From the sequence record PZ452610.1: a DNA stretch of 64,000 bases; one strand, given 5' to 3'. Below, piece by piece: positions 2,596-56,662 of the stretch. The stretch is from a phage. The translations under genes and the position numbers were made by a program. The notes beneath the pieces are model-generated. The model made no database searches. It was given only the letters and a program-made list of their open reading frames with translations, and was not told where the DNA came from. How positions within the stretch are numbered: the stretch's first letter is position 1; every line of letters starts with the position of its first letter.

Positions 2596-2855
2596 ATCTC
2601 AACTTCCGCGAGTTCCATATATCCTTTGTTGATAACCTCTTTAAGGTCTTTAGAAAGGATAACACTAAAATGGTCGTTCATATGTCCATTAACTAAACGA
2701 GTTATTTCGGCTTCAGATGACATATAAGGCACGTCTGAGTCCCAATGAGATAGACCCAAATGGGTATAAATCATCCCTTCGTCATCTGCAGTGTTGTACA
2801 TTGAAACAAATTCGCCTGTTACTTTATGTTTTGCGTAGAAAAATTTAAATTTCAT
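2592..2855 (-). CDS. hypothetical protein (87 aa)
   Basis: ORF track; downstream of early promoter at 2882-2911. Confidence 0.5.
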   Translation of the reverse strand: MKFKFFYAKHKVTGEFVSMYNTADDEGMIYTHLGLSHWDSDVPYMSSEAEITRLVNGHMNDHFSVILSKDLKEVINKGYMELAEVEI

Positions 2856-2881
2856 GATGTTATCCTCTTTTAGATAGGACT

Positions 2882-2911
2882 ACTATATCATAGTCCTACT
2901 TAGTTGTAAAC
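2882..2911 (-). promoter_or_regulatory. early-type promoter with stem-loop
   Basis: Minus strand GTTTAC, 18 bp, TATAGT; -10 flanked by TAGGACTA/TAGTCCTA inverted repeat. Confidence 0.5.
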
Positions 2912-2923
2912 ACTTTTATGAAA

Positions 2924-3400
2924 TTAAAGATGAAGATACCACCCGTTGTAGTTGCTCTTGCGGACGATTTTCTTTAGGTCTTCATGGTCTCCCACGAACT
3001 TTATAGAATAAGAGAAGACGTCAGGTGAGGTTTCTTTGACATCTAATATAATAATGCAATCTGCGACTCGATGGTTCAAGAAGGGCCCTATGTTGATTCC
3101 GTTGCCACCTGGATAATCACCACCGTATCCTGTGGTAACCGAAATCCATTTCGAATCCATCTGATGGGTCTTTACTTCTACGCGTAGACCACAGTACTTA
3201 GGATGAGCTAAAACGTCCCATGCATACGTGTACGGGTCTTCTACGTCTTCATTACCTTTATTAACATATCCGTCTAGCCAATTTGCTACTACATACTCTG
3301 CAAAGACTGCAACCTTACAACGTCGAACAACGTCTTCTTTTATTTGACCTGGATCTTGTTTCAACGAGTACCGAGCAGTATCAGCGATCTTAACCTTCAT
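2924..3400 (-). CDS. hypothetical protein (158 aa); positional candidate for denB but no motif support
   Basis: ORF track 2924..3544 trimmed to in-frame ATG at 3398-3400 to avoid 128-nt overlap with upstream ORF. Confidence 0.45.
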   Translation of the reverse strand: MKVKIADTARYSLKQDPGQIKEDVVRRCKVAVFAEYVVANWLDGYVNKGNEDVEDPYTYAWDVLAHPKYCGLRVEVKTHQMDSKWISVTTGYGGDYPGGNGINIGPFLNHRVADCIIILDVKETSPDVFSYSIKFVGDHEDLKKIVRKSNYNGWYLHL

Positions 3401-10231: not shown

Positions 10232-10249
10232 AAAAGGGCCGAAGCCCTT
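10228..10249 (-). terminator. UUCG-tetraloop terminator
   Basis: Minus strand AAGGGC-UUCG-GCCCUU followed by UUU; overlaps stop of 10248..10670. Confidence 0.55.
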
Positions 10250-10670
10250 ATTTAAATTTAATTTTCTGAAGTGCATCAATTGCAGCCAAACGCCCTTGTT
10301 CACTTTTAACTGTAATGACCACATCACCTGATACGATCACCGAACCATCAACAAATTCTATAGAGCCTTTTTTGAAATCGACAGCTGTATCTGGTTCCGG
10401 AACTTCTTCAAAGAATTTAAATTCTGCACCATAAATCAGAATATCACCTTGCATACTAATGATTGTACGTCCAGGTCCATCGGTTTCAGCGGCAATCATT
10501 GAAACACCGTAGCCAATCATCTCTTCTACAATAAAATCTCTTGATAATAAAACCGTATGCAGAGTAGTGTTAAGACGTTTACCAGTCGTATTAAGAATTC
10601 TCAAGAAATTATCTTCCTGTCCTTTGATAATACGATATTTCTTACCAACTTCAAAACCTTTAAAAGCCAT
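10248..10670 (-). CDS. hypothetical protein (140 aa)
   Basis: ORF track; followed by UUCG hairpin terminator. Confidence 0.55.
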   Translation of the reverse strand: MAFKGFEVGKKYRIIKGQEDNFLRILNTTGKRLNTTLHTVLLSRDFIVEEMIGYGVSMIAAETDGPGRTIISMQGDILIYGAEFKFFEEVPEPDTAVDFKKGSIEFVDGSVIVSGDVVITVKSEQGRLAAIDALQKIKFK

Positions 10671-10672
10671 AA

Positions 10673-10852
10673 TTAACCCTTCTTAAGTAAGTCGTAAAAA
10701 CCACCGTTCACATGTTTAGGAGCAGAAACCCGACGAGTAGACAGACGATGACATTCAGGGCAAACATCGTTTTCTCGTTCAGAAATCCTTTTAATTTTTT
10801 CATATTCATGACCACAATCTTCAGATTGACATTTATAATCGTATAACGGCAT
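10673..10852 (-). CDS. zinc-ribbon protein (59 aa)
   Basis: Sub-threshold ORF MPLYDYKCQSEDCGHEYE...CPECHRL with two CxxC pairs; AGGA RBS. Confidence 0.4.
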   Translation of the reverse strand: MPLYDYKCQSEDCGHEYEKIKRISERENDVCPECHRLSTRRVSAPKHVNGGFYDLLKKG

Positions 10853-10854
10853 TA

Positions 10855-11265
10855 TTATTCCTTAAAATGTGCTTTCAACATTTGATACAAAGACCATGCC
10901 TGGTCATTATTTTTGATAGTAATCGTCATCACAGGAAATTCAGACAATTCATCAAGTTCACCAGAATCTTGCTCTTCGGACGCTTGATATGGATTTCCAA
11001 CTTCGTCAAAGAACTCTGCTTCATTAGTGGAGAGCCAAATAAAGTTTTCATCAAGAATATCACCGCCTGTTGCGTATCCAACTGTGCCAGTAGATGTCAC
11101 AATTTTAGTAGGACGACCAAGATGGTCAACATCTAATACTTTAAATGGTTCCATGCCAAGACGTCGTGCATAAATCCCATTATCAGTGTGGTCTTTAATA
11201 AACTCTTCTTGGGCACGTTTATCTTTAAATTGGTACCATGAGTTAACGCGGAATTTATTAGCCAT
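10855..11265 (-). CDS. hypothetical protein (136 aa)
   Basis: ORF track trimmed to MANKFRV start adjoining upstream stop. Confidence 0.5.
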
Positions 11266-11492
11266 TAGTAAGTTTCCTTCCAATAAGTTGTACCGTTTTC
11301 AGTGATTTCACGGAAGATACCATAGATGGGCATTTCATCGCCAAGTTTTTCGTAAACGTAAACCACTTCGGTGTAGCATAAAAATTCGGTCCAGTTTTTC
11401 TGTACAACAACTAAATCAGGATTAAACAGAACATCTTCAAACTCATCGATGTTTGAATCGGTAGTTACGTTTTTAATGATTTGACGTTTCAT
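11265..11492 (-). CDS. hypothetical protein (75 aa)
   Basis: ORF track trimmed to MKRQII start (AGGAG RBS) downstream of early promoter 11521-11550. Confidence 0.5.
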
Positions 11493-11520
11493 AATATTCT
11501 CCTCTTGTTTTGATAGGTCT

Positions 11521-11550
11521 ATAGTATCATAGACCATAGTTGTTGTACAT
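11521..11550 (-). promoter_or_regulatory. early-type promoter with stem-loop
   Basis: Minus strand TGTACA, 18 bp, TACTAT; GGTCTAT/ATAGACC stem around -10. Confidence 0.45.
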
Positions 11551-12074
11551 CATTTTAGCAAAATAAAATCAACTTGTTCTGCCAATGAACGTCTAAACAT
11601 TAATTGACAACTTCCGAGTATGAAATCAGGTGCTTCATAGACCGCGATGTAGTATCCTTTAGCTTTCAAGAGTTCAACATCCACTTGGTCATCAAACCAT
11701 GCATAAACCGCGTCAACACTTTCAAATCCAAAATAGAACCCTTGAGCCCAATCTTCACTCAATTCAAATGTGTACTCAATTCTATGGTATCTTAAGATAT
11801 TTTGTTCAAGGAGTTTGTCTTCATTTACTGTAGGACGATTAGGGACATTATAGTTGTCGCCGTGATGGTAGAAGTTACCTGAGAGTATTCCATGCTTATC
11901 AAGGAATTCCCATGTTTCTTCAGAGTTGTCGGTGCCTGACCAACCGTACGGCGAGCGAGGTTCTTTATTCCAAGAGGTTTCCCAAATTCTGACGGCTTTA
12001 CCGTCTTCGATAGCAATTCCTGGTAATGATTCACGTTGAGTACAAAAACTACGTTCTACGCGGTAAACTAACAT
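11550..12074 (-). CDS. hypothetical protein (174 aa)
   Basis: ORF track; AGGAG RBS; early promoter upstream. Confidence 0.55.
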   Translation of the reverse strand: MLVYRVERSFCTQRESLPGIAIEDGKAVRIWETSWNKEPRSPYGWSGTDNSEETWEFLDKHGILSGNFYHHGDNYNVPNRPTVNEDKLLEQNILRYHRIEYTFELSEDWAQGFYFGFESVDAVYAWFDDQVDVELLKAKGYYIAVYEAPDFILGSCQLMFRRSLAEQVDFILLK

Positions 12075-12099
12075 ATTATTCTCCTCTGGTTGATATGGT

Positions 12100-12129
12100 T
12101 ATAATATCAAATCCAGAGGAGAAGTAAAC
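12100..12129 (-). promoter_or_regulatory. early-type promoter with stem-loop
   Basis: Minus strand GTTTAC, 17 bp, TATTAT; CCTCTGG/CCAGAGG inverted repeat spans the -10. Confidence 0.5.
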
Positions 12130-12133
12130 AACT

Positions 12134-12553
12134 TTATGCGAAAGCAGCTGGGCTATATTTTTTAATTTGGAATTCAGGAACTACCATGAACTGTCCAGCG
12201 AAAACAATGTTATAAAGCTTAACACCATCTTCTACCCAACGGTCGCTAATAAATCCGGCGATTTGCTTAGTTTTCCACGGTGTTCCATCAGTTGCCGCAG
12301 CAATAGTGAATTCATGGTCTTTTTCAACAGAAACTGATCTGCATAATCCCCATTTGAACGCTTTTTCTTCCGGTTCAATGAATTGGCTTTTAACGTAACC
12401 AATGTTACCATCAGCGTCACGAACTTTAACTTCGTTACGTCCAAAAACAGGATCACTCACAGAAAGAACTTCAACCAACTTCCCGGCAACTTTAGAGCGA
12501 GAAGCAACAGATACATATACGTAATCACCTGTAGAGAGATTTACAATATTCAT
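12134..12553 (-). CDS. hypothetical protein, tandem paralog 1 (139 aa)
   Basis: Shares GFISD.WVEDG.KLYNIVF.G.F.VV motif with next two ORFs. Confidence 0.55.
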   Translation of the reverse strand: MNIVNLSTGDYVYVSVASRSKVAGKLVEVLSVSDPVFGRNEVKVRDADGNIGYVKSQFIEPEEKAFKWGLCRSVSVEKDHEFTIAAATDGTPWKTKQIAGFISDRWVEDGVKLYNIVFAGQFMVVPEFQIKKYSPAAFA

Positions 12554-12562
12554 AATAATTCC

Positions 12563-13018
12563 TTAAGCTTTACGAGGAGACACATAGCGAGTGATTTCAG
12601 ATTCTTTAACAACTCGGAAGTCACCTAAGAATACGATATTGTATAACTTTTCACCATCTTCAACCCATTGGTCACTAATGAAGCCACACATGGTATCAGT
12701 TGTGCTTGGATAGCCGTATTCATCGATGAAGTCAAATTCTTTATCAGTCTGGAATTCAACACCTTTACACAAGGCCCATTTGAACTGTGCATTAGGTTCA
12801 GTAGAAGCAAAATGAGCGCTCACATGAGTTTCCAAGAATTTAGGACTTACGTAAGCATATTGAGTATCCTGACGTCCAAAACTAGGAATGATTCGAACTT
12901 TAACTTCTTTAATACGTCCCATGCCATTTGTGCGAAGTCCGACAACTTCAACCAGACGACCTGCGGCTTTAGAACGGGATGCAGTTGATACACGCTTAAT
13001 TTCACCAATAGTAATCAT
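12563..13018 (-). CDS. hypothetical protein, tandem paralog 2 (151 aa)
   Basis: Paralog of 12134..12553 (STASRSKAAGRLVEV and C-terminal WVEDG motif). Confidence 0.55.
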   Translation of the reverse strand: MITIGEIKRVSTASRSKAAGRLVEVVGLRTNGMGRIKEVKVRIIPSFGRQDTQYAYVSPKFLETHVSAHFASTEPNAQFKWALCKGVEFQTDKEFDFIDEYGYPSTTDTMCGFISDQWVEDGEKLYNIVFLGDFRVVKESEITRYVSPRKA

Positions 13019-13046
13019 AATTTCTCTCTTTGTTTAAATTGAATTC

Positions 13047-13076
13047 ACTATACTCCATCCATCCTTGGATGTACAA
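13047..13076 (-). promoter_or_regulatory. early-type promoter
   Basis: Minus strand TTGTAC, 18 bp, TATAGT; ctccatccatccttggatgtac variant of the repeated cassette. Confidence 0.45.
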
Positions 13077-13078
13077 CA

Positions 13079-13573
13079 TTAATTTAGAATATTAACCACA
13101 GCACTACGTGGAACTACACTAAAATCACCTGCATGAACAACGTTCAGAAGTTCAACACCGTCTTCAATCCACTGGTCAGTTACCCAGCCACTTACCGGTC
13201 CAGCGAATGGTCGACGAATTGAAACTGCTTTACACAACAAGTCTGTAGGCTCGATAGGTTTAACTAAAGTACCGTACATAGAAGCGATGTCCATATCAAA
13301 GTGGAGACCATCTTTAACAGGTGCTTCTCCAATCAACAGTTCAAAGTCGGTGCTTGGAAGGGCGGTAGTAGAAATTGTACCATATGAATTTTTAATTTCT
13401 AAGAATAACCAAGGGCCTTCAGCTTGTTTGATGAAGTTAACAATAGTGAAACTATTACCTTGAGTGGCACCTAAAATTTCACAAAACTTTTCATAAGCTC
13501 GCACTGAAGCACCGTACCAGTTGATTTGTTTTTCGTCTTTCAGGATGTAAGTGGCCGTAGTATTGATATTCAT
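13079..13573 (-). CDS. hypothetical protein, tandem paralog 3 (about 164 aa)
   Basis: C-terminal GWVTDQWIEDGVELLNVVHAGDF related to the two upstream ORFs; start moved to MNINTT because the track start overlaps the promoter. Confidence 0.5.
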   Translation of the reverse strand: MNINTTATYILKDEKQINWYGASVRAYEKFCEILGATQGNSFTIVNFIKQAEGPWLFLEIKNSYGTISTTALPSTDFELLIGEAPVKDGLHFDMDIASMYGTLVKPIEPTDLLCKAVSIRRPFAGPVSGWVTDQWIEDGVELLNVVHAGDFSVVPRSAVVNILN

Positions 13574-13603
13574 AATGGTTTCCAGTTTGGTTAAGATAGA
13601 AAG

Positions 13604-13633
13604 ATTATACTCCAACCATCCTTGGTTGTAAAC
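13604..13633 (-). promoter_or_regulatory. early-type promoter (repeated cassette copy)
   Basis: Minus strand GTTTAC-aaccaaggatggttggag-TATAAT; same cassette at 55614 and 56634. Confidence 0.5.
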
Positions 13634-13638
13634 TGTTT

Positions 13639-14316
13639 TTATCGCTGTTTTACACTTAACGGGTCAGGATTCTCAGGGACATCTTCAAGGCCAAGCGCAT
13701 AACGCTGAGCATATTTTAACATCAAAATATCTTTAGCACAATCATGAATACTATCATGGGCAACGAATCCTTTTAGCGTACCCATCGGTAATGGACACAT
13801 ACTTAATCCTCGTGTCAACGAGTAAGCTTCGATTGCTGTACGAATATCACGTTGAGCCCAGAATTTAACCGGTTCTAATTTATCAGTATCAATATCTGGT
13901 TCAAGAACACCTTCATCACGATAGAGGTCACGAATCAAATCGACCAAGATCGGGAAGTCAAAGCTCATACCACGGCACCACATCTGTGATTTCCATTGGT
14001 CAACTTTATTAGCTCGACAATAATCTAAAAAGATTTTAATGCCTTCAAGCGTAGTGACATCGTCTTCAGACGGAGCCAAGTTTTTACGTGCTTCAGCCGA
14101 TTGTTCTTTCCACCATTTCATAGTGGATTTAGCGAAAACTCGCTTCCCTTTCTGAGAAGCTAAATTAAATTTAATTCGCTTACCTCGTTGAACAAGTTCT
14201 TCAAATGATTCAACAACTTCAGGGTCGGAATTATATGCAATAACCGCAAGGTCAATAACAGCCGCTTTTGATGTATTGCCGAATGTTTCAAAGTCTATAA
14301 TAACATCAGTGCTCAT
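13639..14316 (-). CDS. dexA: exonuclease A (DEDDh 3'-5' exonuclease)
   Basis: 225 aa; N-terminal IIDFETFG Exo I motif; position between motB-like region and dda as in T4. Confidence 0.8.
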   Translation of the reverse strand: MSTDVIIDFETFGNTSKAAVIDLAVIAYNSDPEVVESFEELVQRGKRIKFNLASQKGKRVFAKSTMKWWKEQSAEARKNLAPSEDDVTTLEGIKIFLDYCRANKVDQWKSQMWCRGMSFDFPILVDLIRDLYRDEGVLEPDIDTDKLEPVKFWAQRDIRTAIEAYSLTRGLSMCPLPMGTLKGFVAHDSIHDCAKDILMLKYAQRYALGLEDVPENPDPLSVKQR

Positions 14317-14325
14317 AATTTTCTC

Positions 14326-15639
14326 TCAAATAAAATGGACGTCAAAACGACCACGAGTCGTGCCGACATACAATAACTGTTTAGCTAATTCTGAATCGGC
14401 ATAATGGATACACGGTGTATAAACAAAGGCCGTGTCAACAGACATACCCTGGGCCTTATGGAAGGTTGATACAGGTAGTGCCTTCACCTTAGTGAACATA
14501 CGTTTAGCATCCCAGAATTCGCTCCATGGAGCTTTACCGCCTTTATTCCAGAATTTATATGTTTCTGCGGTCTTAGCCAAAAACAAATTGAATTTATAAA
14601 GCTCTTCTTCAGAAGAAATAACCTTTATATCTTCACGGATGTATTCTTCATCATCACTATATGTTTCTACTGTAAGATTCCAGTATCGTATCATATATTC
14701 GCCTGAAACACCGCGTGCTTTAACGAATGTAGACGTTTCTACAGCATCTCGAATACGAACGAATTGCCCGTTATTGAAAAGCATTTCGGTCATATTTTTG
14801 CCATCTAGCTTATATGTCTTAGTAAATGGCTCTTGTAGAACAATGACTTCGTCTTTAATAAATGGCTTTTCTGTTTCGAGAAGTTTTCGGCGAATAATTG
14901 AATTTAACTTGTCCACCGACTTATTTGTGAATGCCATCATTCGATTTTCGAAAAGGTCTTCAGGAGTTTTAACGACGTTAAAATAGTTCATCATATACGA
15001 TTTAAGGTCTGTATATCCATGAACACCGTGCCCATCAACTACTTTATCGTAAATCCATTTGCCATTACGAATATCAGTCGCAACATCAATAATTGGCGCA
15101 TTGCTACGTTTAACTTCTGTAAGGTTGCATTGCACGAAGTCTTTGTGAGTGAAGAAAGGACTTAGATACGCAGTTGATTCGCCTGGGTCTACCGGACGAA
15201 TCTGGCATCGGTCGCCGATTCCAATTACTGTGCACCATTTAGGGATACTAGCTAACATTATTTTAAACAGAGGACGGTCGCACATTGACGCTTCATCAAA
15301 TAACAGTACACGACACAAGGCTAAGTCGGGAACCTTTTTCTGTTCAAACAATACGTTTTCTTCGTATGTAGTTGGGTTGATTTTAAGAATGCTATGAATA
15401 GTCGATGCTTCTTGACCCGCAAGTTTGCTTAGAACCTTTTTAGCAGCATGTGTAGGGGCTGCTAAAATAATACCTGATTCTCCGGCAGAAATAAGAGCTT
15501 CAACGATGAATCTAGTAAGGGTTGTTTTACCTGTACCAGCAGGCCCATTAATAGTTACGTGATGTTTCTTTTCTTTAATAGCGTTCATAACAACGTTGAA
15601 GGCGTTTTTCTGGCCTTCAGTCAAATCATCAAATGTCAT
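14326..15639 (-). CDS. dda: Dda DNA helicase (SF1)
   Basis: 437 aa; Walker A GPAGTGKTT; matches T4 Dda length and order. Confidence 0.9.
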   Translation of the reverse strand: MTFDDLTEGQKNAFNVVMNAIKEKKHHVTINGPAGTGKTTLTRFIVEALISAGESGIILAAPTHAAKKVLSKLAGQEASTIHSILKINPTTYEENVLFEQKKVPDLALCRVLLFDEASMCDRPLFKIMLASIPKWCTVIGIGDRCQIRPVDPGESTAYLSPFFTHKDFVQCNLTEVKRSNAPIIDVATDIRNGKWIYDKVVDGHGVHGYTDLKSYMMNYFNVVKTPEDLFENRMMAFTNKSVDKLNSIIRRKLLETEKPFIKDEVIVLQEPFTKTYKLDGKNMTEMLFNNGQFVRIRDAVETSTFVKARGVSGEYMIRYWNLTVETYSDDEEYIREDIKVISSEEELYKFNLFLAKTAETYKFWNKGGKAPWSEFWDAKRMFTKVKALPVSTFHKAQGMSVDTAFVYTPCIHYADSELAKQLLYVGTTRGRFDVHFI

Positions 15640-54336: not shown

Positions 54337-54641
54337 TATAATGTTCTCTCAAATTTGTGGAAGCATTTACGGCATTTCAATTTCAAGTTATCACTGGTCC
54401 AGTTAACCAGTTGGACTTGGATAGTTCCACATTCCGGACATGGATGTTTTGCTGCCGATTTGGCAGCATTTTCACGTCGTTCAACCATTTTCATGATTTC
54501 GTTCCATGCTGGAGGAACGAACTCTTCTTCACCGTGGATTTTATCTCGCTGAACAAATTCAATCTTTGAACTATCGTCAATAAACTTAACCAAGCGGTGA
54601 TTAGTGTTCATATCAATATCCTCTAAAAGACGTAGTTTCAT
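54336..54641 (-). CDS. zinc-finger protein (101 aa)
   Basis: CPECG...CRKC motif pair. Confidence 0.5.
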   Translation of the reverse strand: MKLRLLEDIDMNTNHRLVKFIDDSSKIEFVQRDKIHGEEEFVPPAWNEIMKMVERRENAAKSAAKHPCPECGTIQVQLVNWTSDNLKLKCRKCFHKFERTL

Positions 54642-55585
54642 TATAACACCTCAATGGCATTTCGTAAACCATCCGCTTTCGCATTCAGAGCTTTTAACGA
54701 TTTAGTCTGTTCTTTAATCTGGGCTTCGACTTCTTTCAGACGAGATTTGAGATATTCGCGTTCTTCGGCCATGATATCGACCTTTTCTGCTTTAGGTTCT
54801 TTAATAGGCTTAAACACATTAGGGTTCTTCAGTTTAATTTTAATTCGAGAACTGAATAACATTGAACCGTTATCTTCGGTTTCGTCGAACATTTCAACAA
54901 CATCCATAGTCTGTAACATCATGCGAAGTTTATAAGACAGAGAACGAATGGTTTTGTTGCGCTTATTAATTTCTTCGGCTTTCATGGTACCGAGATTACG
55001 TGAGTAATAATAAGGAACCTGGATATCAATTGATAACGATGCGTTACCATTACCAGTTGGTTTGAATACTGCAGTAACCCAATCTTTAACATGAACTTTA
55101 TTTGTACGACCATCGCCGCCTGTGAATAATTTACGTGAATGTTTAAAAAGCATATTCACTTGGTTATTGAATTCACAAGCAAATTTATCAGCAAATTTAG
55201 TTTCAGGAATGGTGGAGAACCAATCAGCTAAATGAGTCTTTTTAACATCATTAACAATAGTGAATTCAACCAAATCGGTTTTAGATGTCACAGATTTAAT
55301 AAAGCTCGGTTTCATAAAGTTTTTAATGTTATCACGAGCCACAGTAGAAGATAATAAACGAGAACGTTTGAACCATTGAAGCAACGTCCCTAATGAATGA
55401 GAATATGCATTTTGAGTATCTTTACAGATATGATTTTCTTGGCCTGTGTATGTACCAAAATCGCGAAGAATACCACTTACTACATCTCGGTGTGGAACAT
55501 CAAATCCTAATGAACCAGAAGCACGTTGGGCATGAACGTTAGCGATAAGACCTGCAAAGTATTCAATGTAATGTGAACGTGTCAT
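54641..55585 (-). CDS. hypothetical protein (314 aa) with C-terminal coiled-coil-like tail
   Basis: ORF track; preceded by conserved promoter cassette. Confidence 0.55.
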   Translation of the reverse strand: MTRSHYIEYFAGLIANVHAQRASGSLGFDVPHRDVVSGILRDFGTYTGQENHICKDTQNAYSHSLGTLLQWFKRSRLLSSTVARDNIKNFMKPSFIKSVTSKTDLVEFTIVNDVKKTHLADWFSTIPETKFADKFACEFNNQVNMLFKHSRKLFTGGDGRTNKVHVKDWVTAVFKPTGNGNASLSIDIQVPYYYSRNLGTMKAEEINKRNKTIRSLSYKLRMMLQTMDVVEMFDETEDNGSMLFSSRIKIKLKNPNVFKPIKEPKAEKVDIMAEEREYLKSRLKEVEAQIKEQTKSLKALNAKADGLRNAIEVL

Positions 55586-55613: not shown

Positions 55614-55643
55614 ATTATACTCCAACCATCCTTGGTTGTAAAC
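55614..55643 (-). promoter_or_regulatory. early-type promoter (repeated cassette copy)
   Basis: Minus strand GTTTAC-aaccaaggatggttggag-TATAAT, identical core to 13604-13633. Confidence 0.5.
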
Positions 55644-55647
55644 TATT

Positions 55648-56607
55648 TTATGATTTTAACGCATTCATTGCGTTAAAAAGTTTAGAATACTGCAACTGGA
55701 GATTCGTTACAACACTTTGAGCATCACGAAGCTTAGCTTGTGCTTTGTCAAGTTCAACAGACAGTTGGTCCATAGTGGCCTTGATTTGATTGTAATGGTA
55801 ATCTTCGGCCGGAAGAAGGTCATTAGAAACATTTAGTTTTACTGCAGACAGTTTGCACACATTTGGCAAACCTTTAAACATTGATTTACCCGAAGTAGAA
55901 TAAGCACTTAGGACTTCGGCCTGTTCAATTGGGGTCCCAGTAAGCGATGCTTCAAACAATGCATTTTCCTTTTTAAGATTTTGATAATATTCGGAGTCTT
56001 TGTGCCACCATGGCGCAGGAACCTTTTTACCAATAGATACACGAGCCTGGATAGCGATATGGCCCTTATTCTTGATAAGGTCGATAATATTAAGCTCACG
56101 AGAATAAATCGCTTTAATCTGGTGGATATTATCACCTAAAACTTCCAACGCTTGGTGGAATACACGAGCGACATTATCATTCTTAGGTTTATACGTAAGA
56201 GTGAACTCATTCTCACTGATAACCATGATTTCCAACTTATCGTAAGTATATTTCAAATGTTTCATGTTAATTGCTTGAGGACGAATACGAGAAGCAATGG
56301 CCATCAGATTGTTAAGGTTATTCCGGAACTGCTTAGCGAAATATTGTCCTTCACCGCCAATACAAAAATTACGAAGTTTCTGTTTGGCCAATAAACGGCT
56401 GAACTCACCATTTTTAATGAACTCTTTAACGGGTGTGTTAGTAACGCATTCAAATTGAGTAAACTTACGAGAAGTAATCCCATAATATGAACAGATTTCC
56501 TCAATCTCTTCAGGAGTCTTTACAGGCATACGGATAGGATTAGGTCCTGGAGTATATGCGTTCGAGGTAAATTCTTTGATAAGTTCTCTACGTGTAATAA
56601 AAGCCAT
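55648..56607 (-). CDS. hypothetical protein (319 aa) with C-terminal coiled-coil-like tail
   Basis: ORF track; preceded by conserved promoter cassette. Confidence 0.55.
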   Translation of the reverse strand: MAFITRRELIKEFTSNAYTPGPNPIRMPVKTPEEIEEICSYYGITSRKFTQFECVTNTPVKEFIKNGEFSRLLAKQKLRNFCIGGEGQYFAKQFRNNLNNLMAIASRIRPQAINMKHLKYTYDKLEIMVISENEFTLTYKPKNDNVARVFHQALEVLGDNIHQIKAIYSRELNIIDLIKNKGHIAIQARVSIGKKVPAPWWHKDSEYYQNLKKENALFEASLTGTPIEQAEVLSAYSTSGKSMFKGLPNVCKLSAVKLNVSNDLLPAEDYHYNQIKATMDQLSVELDKAQAKLRDAQSVVTNLQLQYSKLFNAMNALKS

Positions 56608-56633: not shown

Positions 56634-56662
56634 ATTATACTCCAACCATCCTTGGTTGTACA
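56634..56662 (-). promoter_or_regulatory. early-type promoter (repeated cassette copy)
   Basis: Minus strand TGTACAACCAAGGATGGTTGGAGTATAAT. Confidence 0.5.

Follow-up and report, generated by a model that had tools for sequence, protein, structure and literature searches.

T4 MotB is an abundant early protein which binds DNA tightly without sequence specificity (PMC6070864), alters the H-NS footprint on DNA, and is toxic in E. coli (PMC6070864, PMC7827196). In T4 experiments it raises the burst size about two-fold. It copurifies with H-NS and StpA (PMC6070864), and PMC7827196 reports that a direct contact between MotB and H-NS could not be shown. According to Patterson-West et al. (2021, PMC7827196), MotB and MotB.1 have a conserved C-terminal domain (CTD) in common while their N-terminal domains (NTDs) are different, one gene is possibly a duplicate of the other, and four categories of N-terminus can be described; for phage RB69 they gave two motB genes, one motB.1, and one peptide of 29 amino acids (aa). 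The NTD of MotB.1 has further been placed in an LSm-like family together with GoF and Frd.2 (Kim et al. 2025, PMC12152347). Here we have analysed positions 12134–13573 of a phage DNA stretch of 64,000 nucleotides (PZ452610.1; the whole stretch is called the window below), where three tandem open reading frames (ORFs) of 139, 151, and 164 aa on the minus strand carry a common C-terminal motif.

These ORFs are a MotB.1 homologue (164 aa, 13079–13573, counted from an ATG start), a MotB homologue (151 aa, 12563–13018), and a second MotB copy (139 aa, 12134–12553) of an RB69-like T4-type phage. A first-pass annotation, made from the letters of the DNA, had treated them as unnamed, although they are already known genes with the names motB.1, motB, and second motB. 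Its observation is real, its interpretation is partly right, and the finding is a rediscovery. Overall, we consider it very probable that the three are MotB-family members in an RB69-type layout, which share a predicted C-terminal barrel, would be served by early promoters, and have probably divided their roles.

Homology and family membership

We have compared the three proteins with each other by BLASTP. The 139- and 151-aa proteins align over the full length at 43% identity (E = 2e-32), and the pairs with the 164-aa protein give E = 2e-11 (139 aa) and E = 2e-10 (151 aa), with the conserved block being the C-terminal ~40 residues in both. Upstream of this block, the 139/164 alignment holds only a gapped, weakly similar stretch. 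In addition, the Smith-Waterman scores of the protein pairs were compared with those of 1000 residue shuffles, which gives z = 45 for the 139/151 pair and z = 16.5 and 15.5 for the pairs with the 164-aa protein; none of the 1000 shuffles reaches the observed score. An alignment against shuffled controls had been named beforehand as the comparison that should decide on the motif, and the motif is significant in it. That the likeness should come from chance or composition rather than from homology is scarcely conceivable, since the z values of 15–45, the 0 of 1000 shuffles, the BLASTP E values between 2e-10 and 2e-32, and the Pfam scores above the cutoff (given below) all speak against it. On these comparisons, the three proteins are homologous.

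A six-frame translation of the window holds the core D.W[VIL]E[DEN]G exactly three times, with one copy in each ORF. The fuller core which is common to all three is G[WF][VI][TS]D[QR]W[VI]EDG.[EK]L[LY]N[VI]V, and the CTD around it covers ~55–75 aa. The consensus first quoted for the motif needs small corrections, as the 164-aa protein reads GWVTDQWIEDGVELLNVVHAGDFSVV, with GW and VH in place of the GF and VF of the other two. Similarly, in the N-terminal segment described as common to the 139- and 151-aa proteins, the 139-aa protein reads SVASRSKVAGKLVEV and not STAS. On the minus strand, the CTD is encoded at 13082–13249 in the 164-aa gene (PTDLLCKAV...GWVTDQWIEDGVELLNVVHAGDFSVVPRSAVVNILN), at 12566–12784 in the 151-aa gene (FKWALCKGV...GFISDQWVEDGEKLYNIVFLGDFRVV..., delimited from the alignment and the model strands), and at 12137–12361 in the 139-aa gene (FKWGLCRSV...GFISDRWVEDGVKLYNIVFAGQFMVV..., from alignments). 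Compared with the MotB.1 type, the CTD of the 151-aa protein has an insertion of ~15 residues between strands 1 and 2.

The 174-aa neighbour (11550–12074, MotB.2-like, phrog_1106) was considered as a fourth paralog and rejected. It shows no similarity to the trio in the Smith-Waterman shuffle test (z from -0.6 to 1.7, thus below 2), and MAFFT had aligned its W with the W of the motif by chance.

All three proteins pass the curated gathering cutoff of Pfam PF17613 (motB, modifier of transcription; 25 bits, whole-protein score), with 77.2 bits for the 139-aa, 126.5 bits for the 151-aa, and 35.3 bits for the 164-aa protein. The coverage differs among them. PF17613 matches the 151-aa protein on residues 1–146 of 151, while it matches the 164-aa protein only on residues 88–159 (profile positions 82–153), i.e., the CTD. 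The MotB profile phrog_1671 covers residues 1–151 of the 151-aa protein on profile positions 2–166 (E = 4.3e-64) and residues 5–139 of the 139-aa protein (E = 1.3e-51), so that both have the KOW-like NTD and the MotB CTD of MotB proper (Category 1) from end to end. In the 164-aa protein the same profile matches residues 110–163 only, which sets it outside this category; it matches the MotB.1 profile phrog_2333 on residues 1–164 (E = 3.7e-80) and thus belongs to MotB.1 (Category 2). A sequence search of PDB with the 151-aa protein gave no match at E <= 1.

By alignment, the T4 counterparts of the 151-aa, 164-aa, and neighbouring 174-aa proteins are MotB, MotB.1, and MotB.2, respectively. The 151- and 139-aa proteins fit the family profile of T4 MotB (PF17613; Patterson-West et al. 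2018, 2021) essentially full length, with the KOW-like SRSK.AG.LVEV N-terminus and the DQWVEDG.KLYN C-terminal core, and both phages carry these genes in the cef–dexA neighbourhood, the position of the MotB family in the early region of Tevenvirinae. On the other hand, T4 has one motB while the phage here has two in tandem; motB.2 adjoins dexA in T4 (2662–3162 of the T4 locus L002), whereas its homologue here (11550–12074) adjoins cef, as in RB69; and T4 MotB is basic overall (pI 9.2) while for the 151- and 139-aa proteins the pI is close to neutral (7.7 and 6.6). The homologues of the 164-aa protein are 143–169 aa long and include T4 MotB.1 (P0011). With this 143-aa T4-type protein it has 46% identity and the PTDLLCKAV..GWVTDQWIEDGVELLNVVHAG CTD in common, in addition to the full-length match to phrog_2333, but its linker (DMDIASMYGTLVKPIEP) is ~20 residues longer than that of T4 MotB.1 and contains a DMDIASMYGTLVKP motif.

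The likeness to RB69 is much closer. The RB69 record (AY303349) has the order dexA, motB.1, ORF012c, motB, RB69ORF010c ('similar to motB'), motB.2, cef, goF, which the order here (dexA, motB.1, motB, second motB, motB.2, cef) matches gene for gene. Since the layout is identical, the 139-aa ORF can be taken as the homologue of RB69ORF010c. Both motB copies have 91–95% nucleotide identity to those of RB69, the mean column identity for motB.1 is 95%, and the 151-aa protein is 93% identical to RB69 MotB (P0176). The 139-aa type forms a tight clade with 84–94% identity. The stretch 11500–14400 shows 100% identity to typing phages 3, 6, and 13 of E. coli O157 (Mosigvirus, Tevenvirinae, RB69 group), and its identity to many RB69-like phages is 96–98%. 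It had been stated correctly that the trio lies between gene 39 and dexA: dexA (13639–14316) and dda flank it on one side, and on the other side are the 174-aa ORF, cef, two GoF-like ORFs, 39.2, and gene 39. Overall, these results change little for wider biology, since the trio, its common CTD, and the idea of duplication are already present in the RB69 annotation and the 2021 paper.

Duplication history and domain shuffling

Judging from the alignments, the 139/151 pair is the product of a later whole-gene tandem duplication and has diverged to 43% identity. The 164-aa protein, by comparison, is not a whole-gene paralog of the two, as only the ~55-residue CTD is in common and its N-terminal ~100 residues fall into another family (phrog_2333 / T4 MotB.1). 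Of the three paralogs by local duplication that had been proposed, the full-length pair therefore stands, while the 164-aa protein joins it only through the CTD. At the sequence level, the relationship between MotB and MotB.1 is that of an old domain-level duplication or shuffle across Tevenvirinae.

The first-pass annotation had suggested checking the copy number in related phages. By tblastn, we have found 1685 copies of the CTD of the 164-aa protein in 781 phage records. In the rows sampled, most Tequatrovirus-type records have two copies and the RB69-like Mosigvirus records have three. The 139-aa type is found at 80% identity or above in 208 of the 762 phage records with a MotB-type gene (about a quarter), and its named carriers include RB69 and O157 typing phages 3 and 6, which are classified as Mosigvirus. 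The other 554 records have only a copy with less than 60% identity to the 139-aa protein, and none falls between 60% and 80%. Because of this gap in the distribution, the 139-aa copy looks like the outcome of one duplication event in a single lineage.

We have also calculated the ratio of non-synonymous to synonymous substitution rates (dN/dS) against RB69, which is 0.18 for the 151-aa gene and 0.06 for the 139-aa gene. Both motB copies are under purifying selection. This bears on the idea that the 139-aa copy could be redundant, in decay, and without a function of its own, for which one may point to its shorter length (139 aa, compared with 151–165 aa for MotB), its lack of a promoter of its own, and the loss of the basic charge of its NTD. 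However, 208 phage records carry the ORF intact at 80% identity or above, the dN/dS of this copy is below that of motB itself, and it has its own Shine-Dalgarno sequence, and we regard such a decay as very unlikely.

In three proteins from metagenome contigs (P0148, P0149, and P0151), a MotB-type N-terminus and middle are followed by the C-terminal tail of the 139-aa copy (..AGQFMVVPEFQIKKYCPASFA). From their sequences, these chimeras look like recombination products of tandem motB copies.

At 69–88% identity the CTD is joined to at least four NTD types, and the proteins bearing it comprise those of 143–169 aa, of ~180 aa, and of ~248 aa (the last with two N-terminal modules), as well as the KOW-type hybrids P0059 and P0070. 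Since the CTD is joined to several other N-termini, domain shuffling is, as far as the alignments tell, a better description of its spread than whole-gene paralogy. When distant relatives outside phages were sought with a profile of the CTD among 1.84 billion proteins, only 29 cluster representatives were matched, nearly all of them small (43–251 aa), and the ones inspected have MotB-like N-termini or MotB-type CTDs. One match, P0275 (842 aa), was rejected as spurious because it comes from the repeated GYQWQKNGVSLTN segment of an unrelated repeat protein; P0278 (837 aa) is a multi-stretch match of the same kind.

Predicted fold, putative expression, and possible roles

We have modelled the CTD with AlphaFold2 from the last 74 residues of the 164-aa protein and an alignment of 72 sequences. 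From residue 21 to the end, the block-mean predicted local distance difference test score (pLDDT) is 92–97. The model consists of five strands plus a 3-10 helix located between strands 4 and 5, and the conserved motif forms strand 2, a DG turn, and strand 3, i.e., a hairpin. As a 3-10 helix at this place is the signature of an SH3-like small barrel, the high-confidence prediction for the CTD is an SH3-like/Tudor-like barrel and not an OB fold, at the level of the fold class only. The full-length AlphaFold2 model of the 151-aa protein consists of two beta-barrels (mean pLDDT 84), and the block-mean pLDDT exceeds 90 over most of the C-terminal barrel, whose strands are residues 86–98, 104–120, 123–130, 133–138, and 142–146. 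In a Foldseek search against viral models, the MotB-type family was matched first.

An alternative is that the CTD is a cold-shock-like OB-fold domain through which all three proteins bind DNA. HHpred indeed assigned the MotB CTD to the OB fold, with matches to the C-terminal OB domain of eIF5A (PMC7827196), and T4 MotB does bind DNA (PMC6070864). The CTD does not fit the OB-fold/cold-shock class (SCOPe b.40.4.5), which is marked by a five-stranded barrel with a helix between strands 3 and 4 and by OB structural neighbours, and we consider this alternative unlikely. The choice has a practical side, as an SH3-like/Tudor-like prediction in place of an OB prediction changes which surfaces of the CTD are to be mutated.

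The predicted SH3-like barrel resembles the tandem Tudor domains of 53BP1, the KOW pairs of Spt5, and the KOW domains of NusG and RfaH, but only at the level of the fold, with 7–20% identity in structural alignments. On present evidence, there is no sign that the likeness extends to a methyl-lysine aromatic cage or to contacts with RNA polymerase or the ribosome. Because of this low identity, and because no Pfam Tudor or KOW family is matched at E <= 1 among the trio proteins, we have not filed the CTD under these families. Based on the models and profiles, each protein of the trio would consist of two small beta-barrels joined by a linker. The N-terminal barrel would be KOW-like in the two MotB copies, and in the MotB.1 homologue it would be of the MotB.1/GoF type, from the family called LSm-like in PMC12152347.

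As for expression, each of the three genes had been said to have its own promoter, which fails for the 139-aa gene. Putative early-type sigma-70 promoters are found on the minus strand upstream of the 164-aa gene (13604–13632, TTTACA-17-TATAAT, 11 of 12 consensus positions matched) and of the 151-aa gene (13047–13075, TGTACA-17-TATAGT), both inside a 45-nt repeat whose two copies have 76% identity. The ATG of the 139-aa gene follows the stop of the 151-aa gene after 9 nt (12554–12562), where only a Shine-Dalgarno AAGGA is present. Because of this short gap with a Shine-Dalgarno sequence alone, the 139-aa gene is most likely co-transcribed with the 151-aa gene, and the promoter-like site of the latter probably serves both. 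The trio would then have two early sigma-70 promoters, one for motB.1 and the other for a bicistron of motB and its second copy. No MotA box (TGCTT-N12-14-TANNNT) is matched on the minus strand within 12134–13700.

A 24-nt core of these sites, ACA[AT]CCAAGGATGG[AT]TGGAGTATA, runs from the end of the -35 through the spacer, which holds a short inverted repeat, into the -10. It occurs four times on the minus strand of the window, while the number expected from shuffles is zero. Of these copies, two precede motB (13049–13072) and motB.1 (13606–13629), and the other two (55616–55639 and 56636–56659) precede the neighbouring ~315-aa ORFs at 54641–55585 and 55648–56607, the latter being a DUF7235 protein. 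The upstream TTG at 13615, which would give a 178-aa version of the 164-aa ORF, was rejected as the start. It lies 5' of the -10 hexamer (13609–13604) and the homologues begin with MNI.., so we have taken the ATG at 13573. Likewise, a terminator-like hairpin at 13111–13096 is regarded as a coincidence of coding sequence, being located inside the 164-aa gene where it encodes ...PRSAVV and having a poor T tract.

The charge distribution differs among the three proteins. In the 151-aa protein, the net charge is +6 for the N-terminal half and -5 for the CTD, the N-terminal half of the 139-aa copy has -1, and the 164-aa MotB.1 homologue is acidic throughout (pI 4.7). Based on this distribution and on the acidic and aromatic invariant residues of the CTD, we put forward the hypothesis of a division of labour among the trio. 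By analogy with T4 MotB, the 151-aa protein with its basic NTD probably carries the DNA-binding role, mainly in the KOW half, while the 139-aa copy and the acidic MotB.1 homologue are probably sub-functionalised. The shared C-terminal barrel would be a common module which brings different nucleic-acid-binding N-terminal barrels to the same partner or substrate; it may be a docking or oligomerisation module rather than a DNA-binding surface.

Several points, besides the HHpred assignment above, weigh against this explanation. Both halves of T4 MotB are basic (+4 and +2), unlike the 151-aa protein with its acidic CTD (-5), which makes any placing of the DNA-binding surface tentative. DNA binding and the effect on H-NS have been shown for T4 MotB only, whose identity to the 139-aa copy is 44% in the multiple alignment and whose identity to the 151-aa protein is ~46%, an estimate from the T4-type 162-aa cluster P0159. 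Finally, the promoters are consensus matches only, and the 11 promoter-like sites of the region are not clearly above the 8.0 +/- 2.7 found in shuffles.

SH3-like and Tudor barrels commonly bind peptides. In line with this, the C-terminal barrel could be a protein–protein adaptor for a common host or phage partner, such as a nucleoid protein, with the nucleic acid bound by the N-terminal barrels. The invariant acidic and aromatic hairpin of the CTD, its combination with at least four different NTDs, and T4 MotB's copurification with H-NS and StpA (PMC6070864) would fit such an adaptor, but the C-terminal barrel has no known partner, and we hold this reading to be possible though doubtful. A more specific proposal is that the CTD, rather than being a DNA-binding OB fold, acts as a docking module of the Tudor/SH3-like kind which recognises one common target through its invariant D-x-W-x-E-D-G...N hairpin, e.g., a host nucleoid-protein/DNA filament or modified phage DNA, and which serves as a Tevenvirinae toolkit fused to KOW, one or two LSm-like, and other barrels. 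This seems to us rather improbable; if true, MotB, the second MotB, and MotB.1 would bring different activities to one site.

Frameshifted reference records and neighbouring features

When the 164-aa protein is compared with its counterparts, the reference records of both T4 and RB69 appear frameshifted in motB.1. The T4 RefSeq/GenBank record (NC_000866.4) reads ATTGGAAGATGG where MT984581 reads ATTGAAGATGG, that is, it has one extra G. The gene lies at 2292–2651 of the T4 locus L002, taken from NC_000866.4, with the downstream part reaching to 2220, and at 310–741 of the locus L004, taken from MT984581. The reference MotB.1 of 119 aa is without the 28 C-terminal residues of the CTD; once the extra G is removed, it grows from 119 to 143 aa and ...EDGVELLNVVHAGEYSVVPRSAVVAILN is restored, and MT984581 is annotated with the 143-aa MotB.1. 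The other T4 records in our collection, together with RB55 and RB59, match with 460 instead of 461 bases at 99.6–99.8% identity. This is consistent with the lack of the extra G, and they would thus encode a 143-aa MotB.1 with a complete CTD.

In RB69 (AY303349; 2162–2658 of the locus L003), motB.1 has two single-T insertions compared with the window, which divide it into an ORF of 132 aa and the 29-aa RB69ORF012c, whereas one intact 164-aa ORF is present here. The 29-aa peptide which forms the single-member 'Category 3' (PMC7827196) can be explained in this way, as motB.1 is frameshifted in that record. Neither PMC7827196 nor PMC12152347 mentions a frameshift, and Kim et al. (2025, PMC12152347) cited the NC_000866.4 coordinates and a MotB.1 of 13.8 kDa. 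Experiments based on the 119-aa annotation may thus have used a MotB.1 without half of its conserved domain. The frameshift reading of T4 and RB69 motB.1 is a small addition which may be useful for work on T4 early proteins.

Next to the trio, a stable hairpin (-23.1 kcal/mol, z = -4.4) is predicted on the minus strand at 12079–12123, upstream of the 174-aa motB.2-like gene. The Shine-Dalgarno GAGGAG of this gene is part of the 3' arm of the hairpin, and the loop holds the -10 of the gene's own promoter-like site (12128–12101). Judging from this arrangement, the ribosome site of the 174-aa gene would be sequestered in transcripts that read through from the motB genes, but not in those started at the proximal promoter. 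Similar arrangements are known for some other T4 genes.

Further away on the same strand, the two GoF-like ORFs (10248–10670 and 10855–11283) both belong to phrog_622, with only a 39.2-like ORF of 59 aa (10673–10852) between them. In this pair, too, a small-barrel early protein has been duplicated locally. The ORF at 10248–10670 also matches phrog_2333, the family of the MotB.1 N-terminus, weakly (E = 0.0049), which is consistent with the published LSm-like relationship between GoF and MotB.1.

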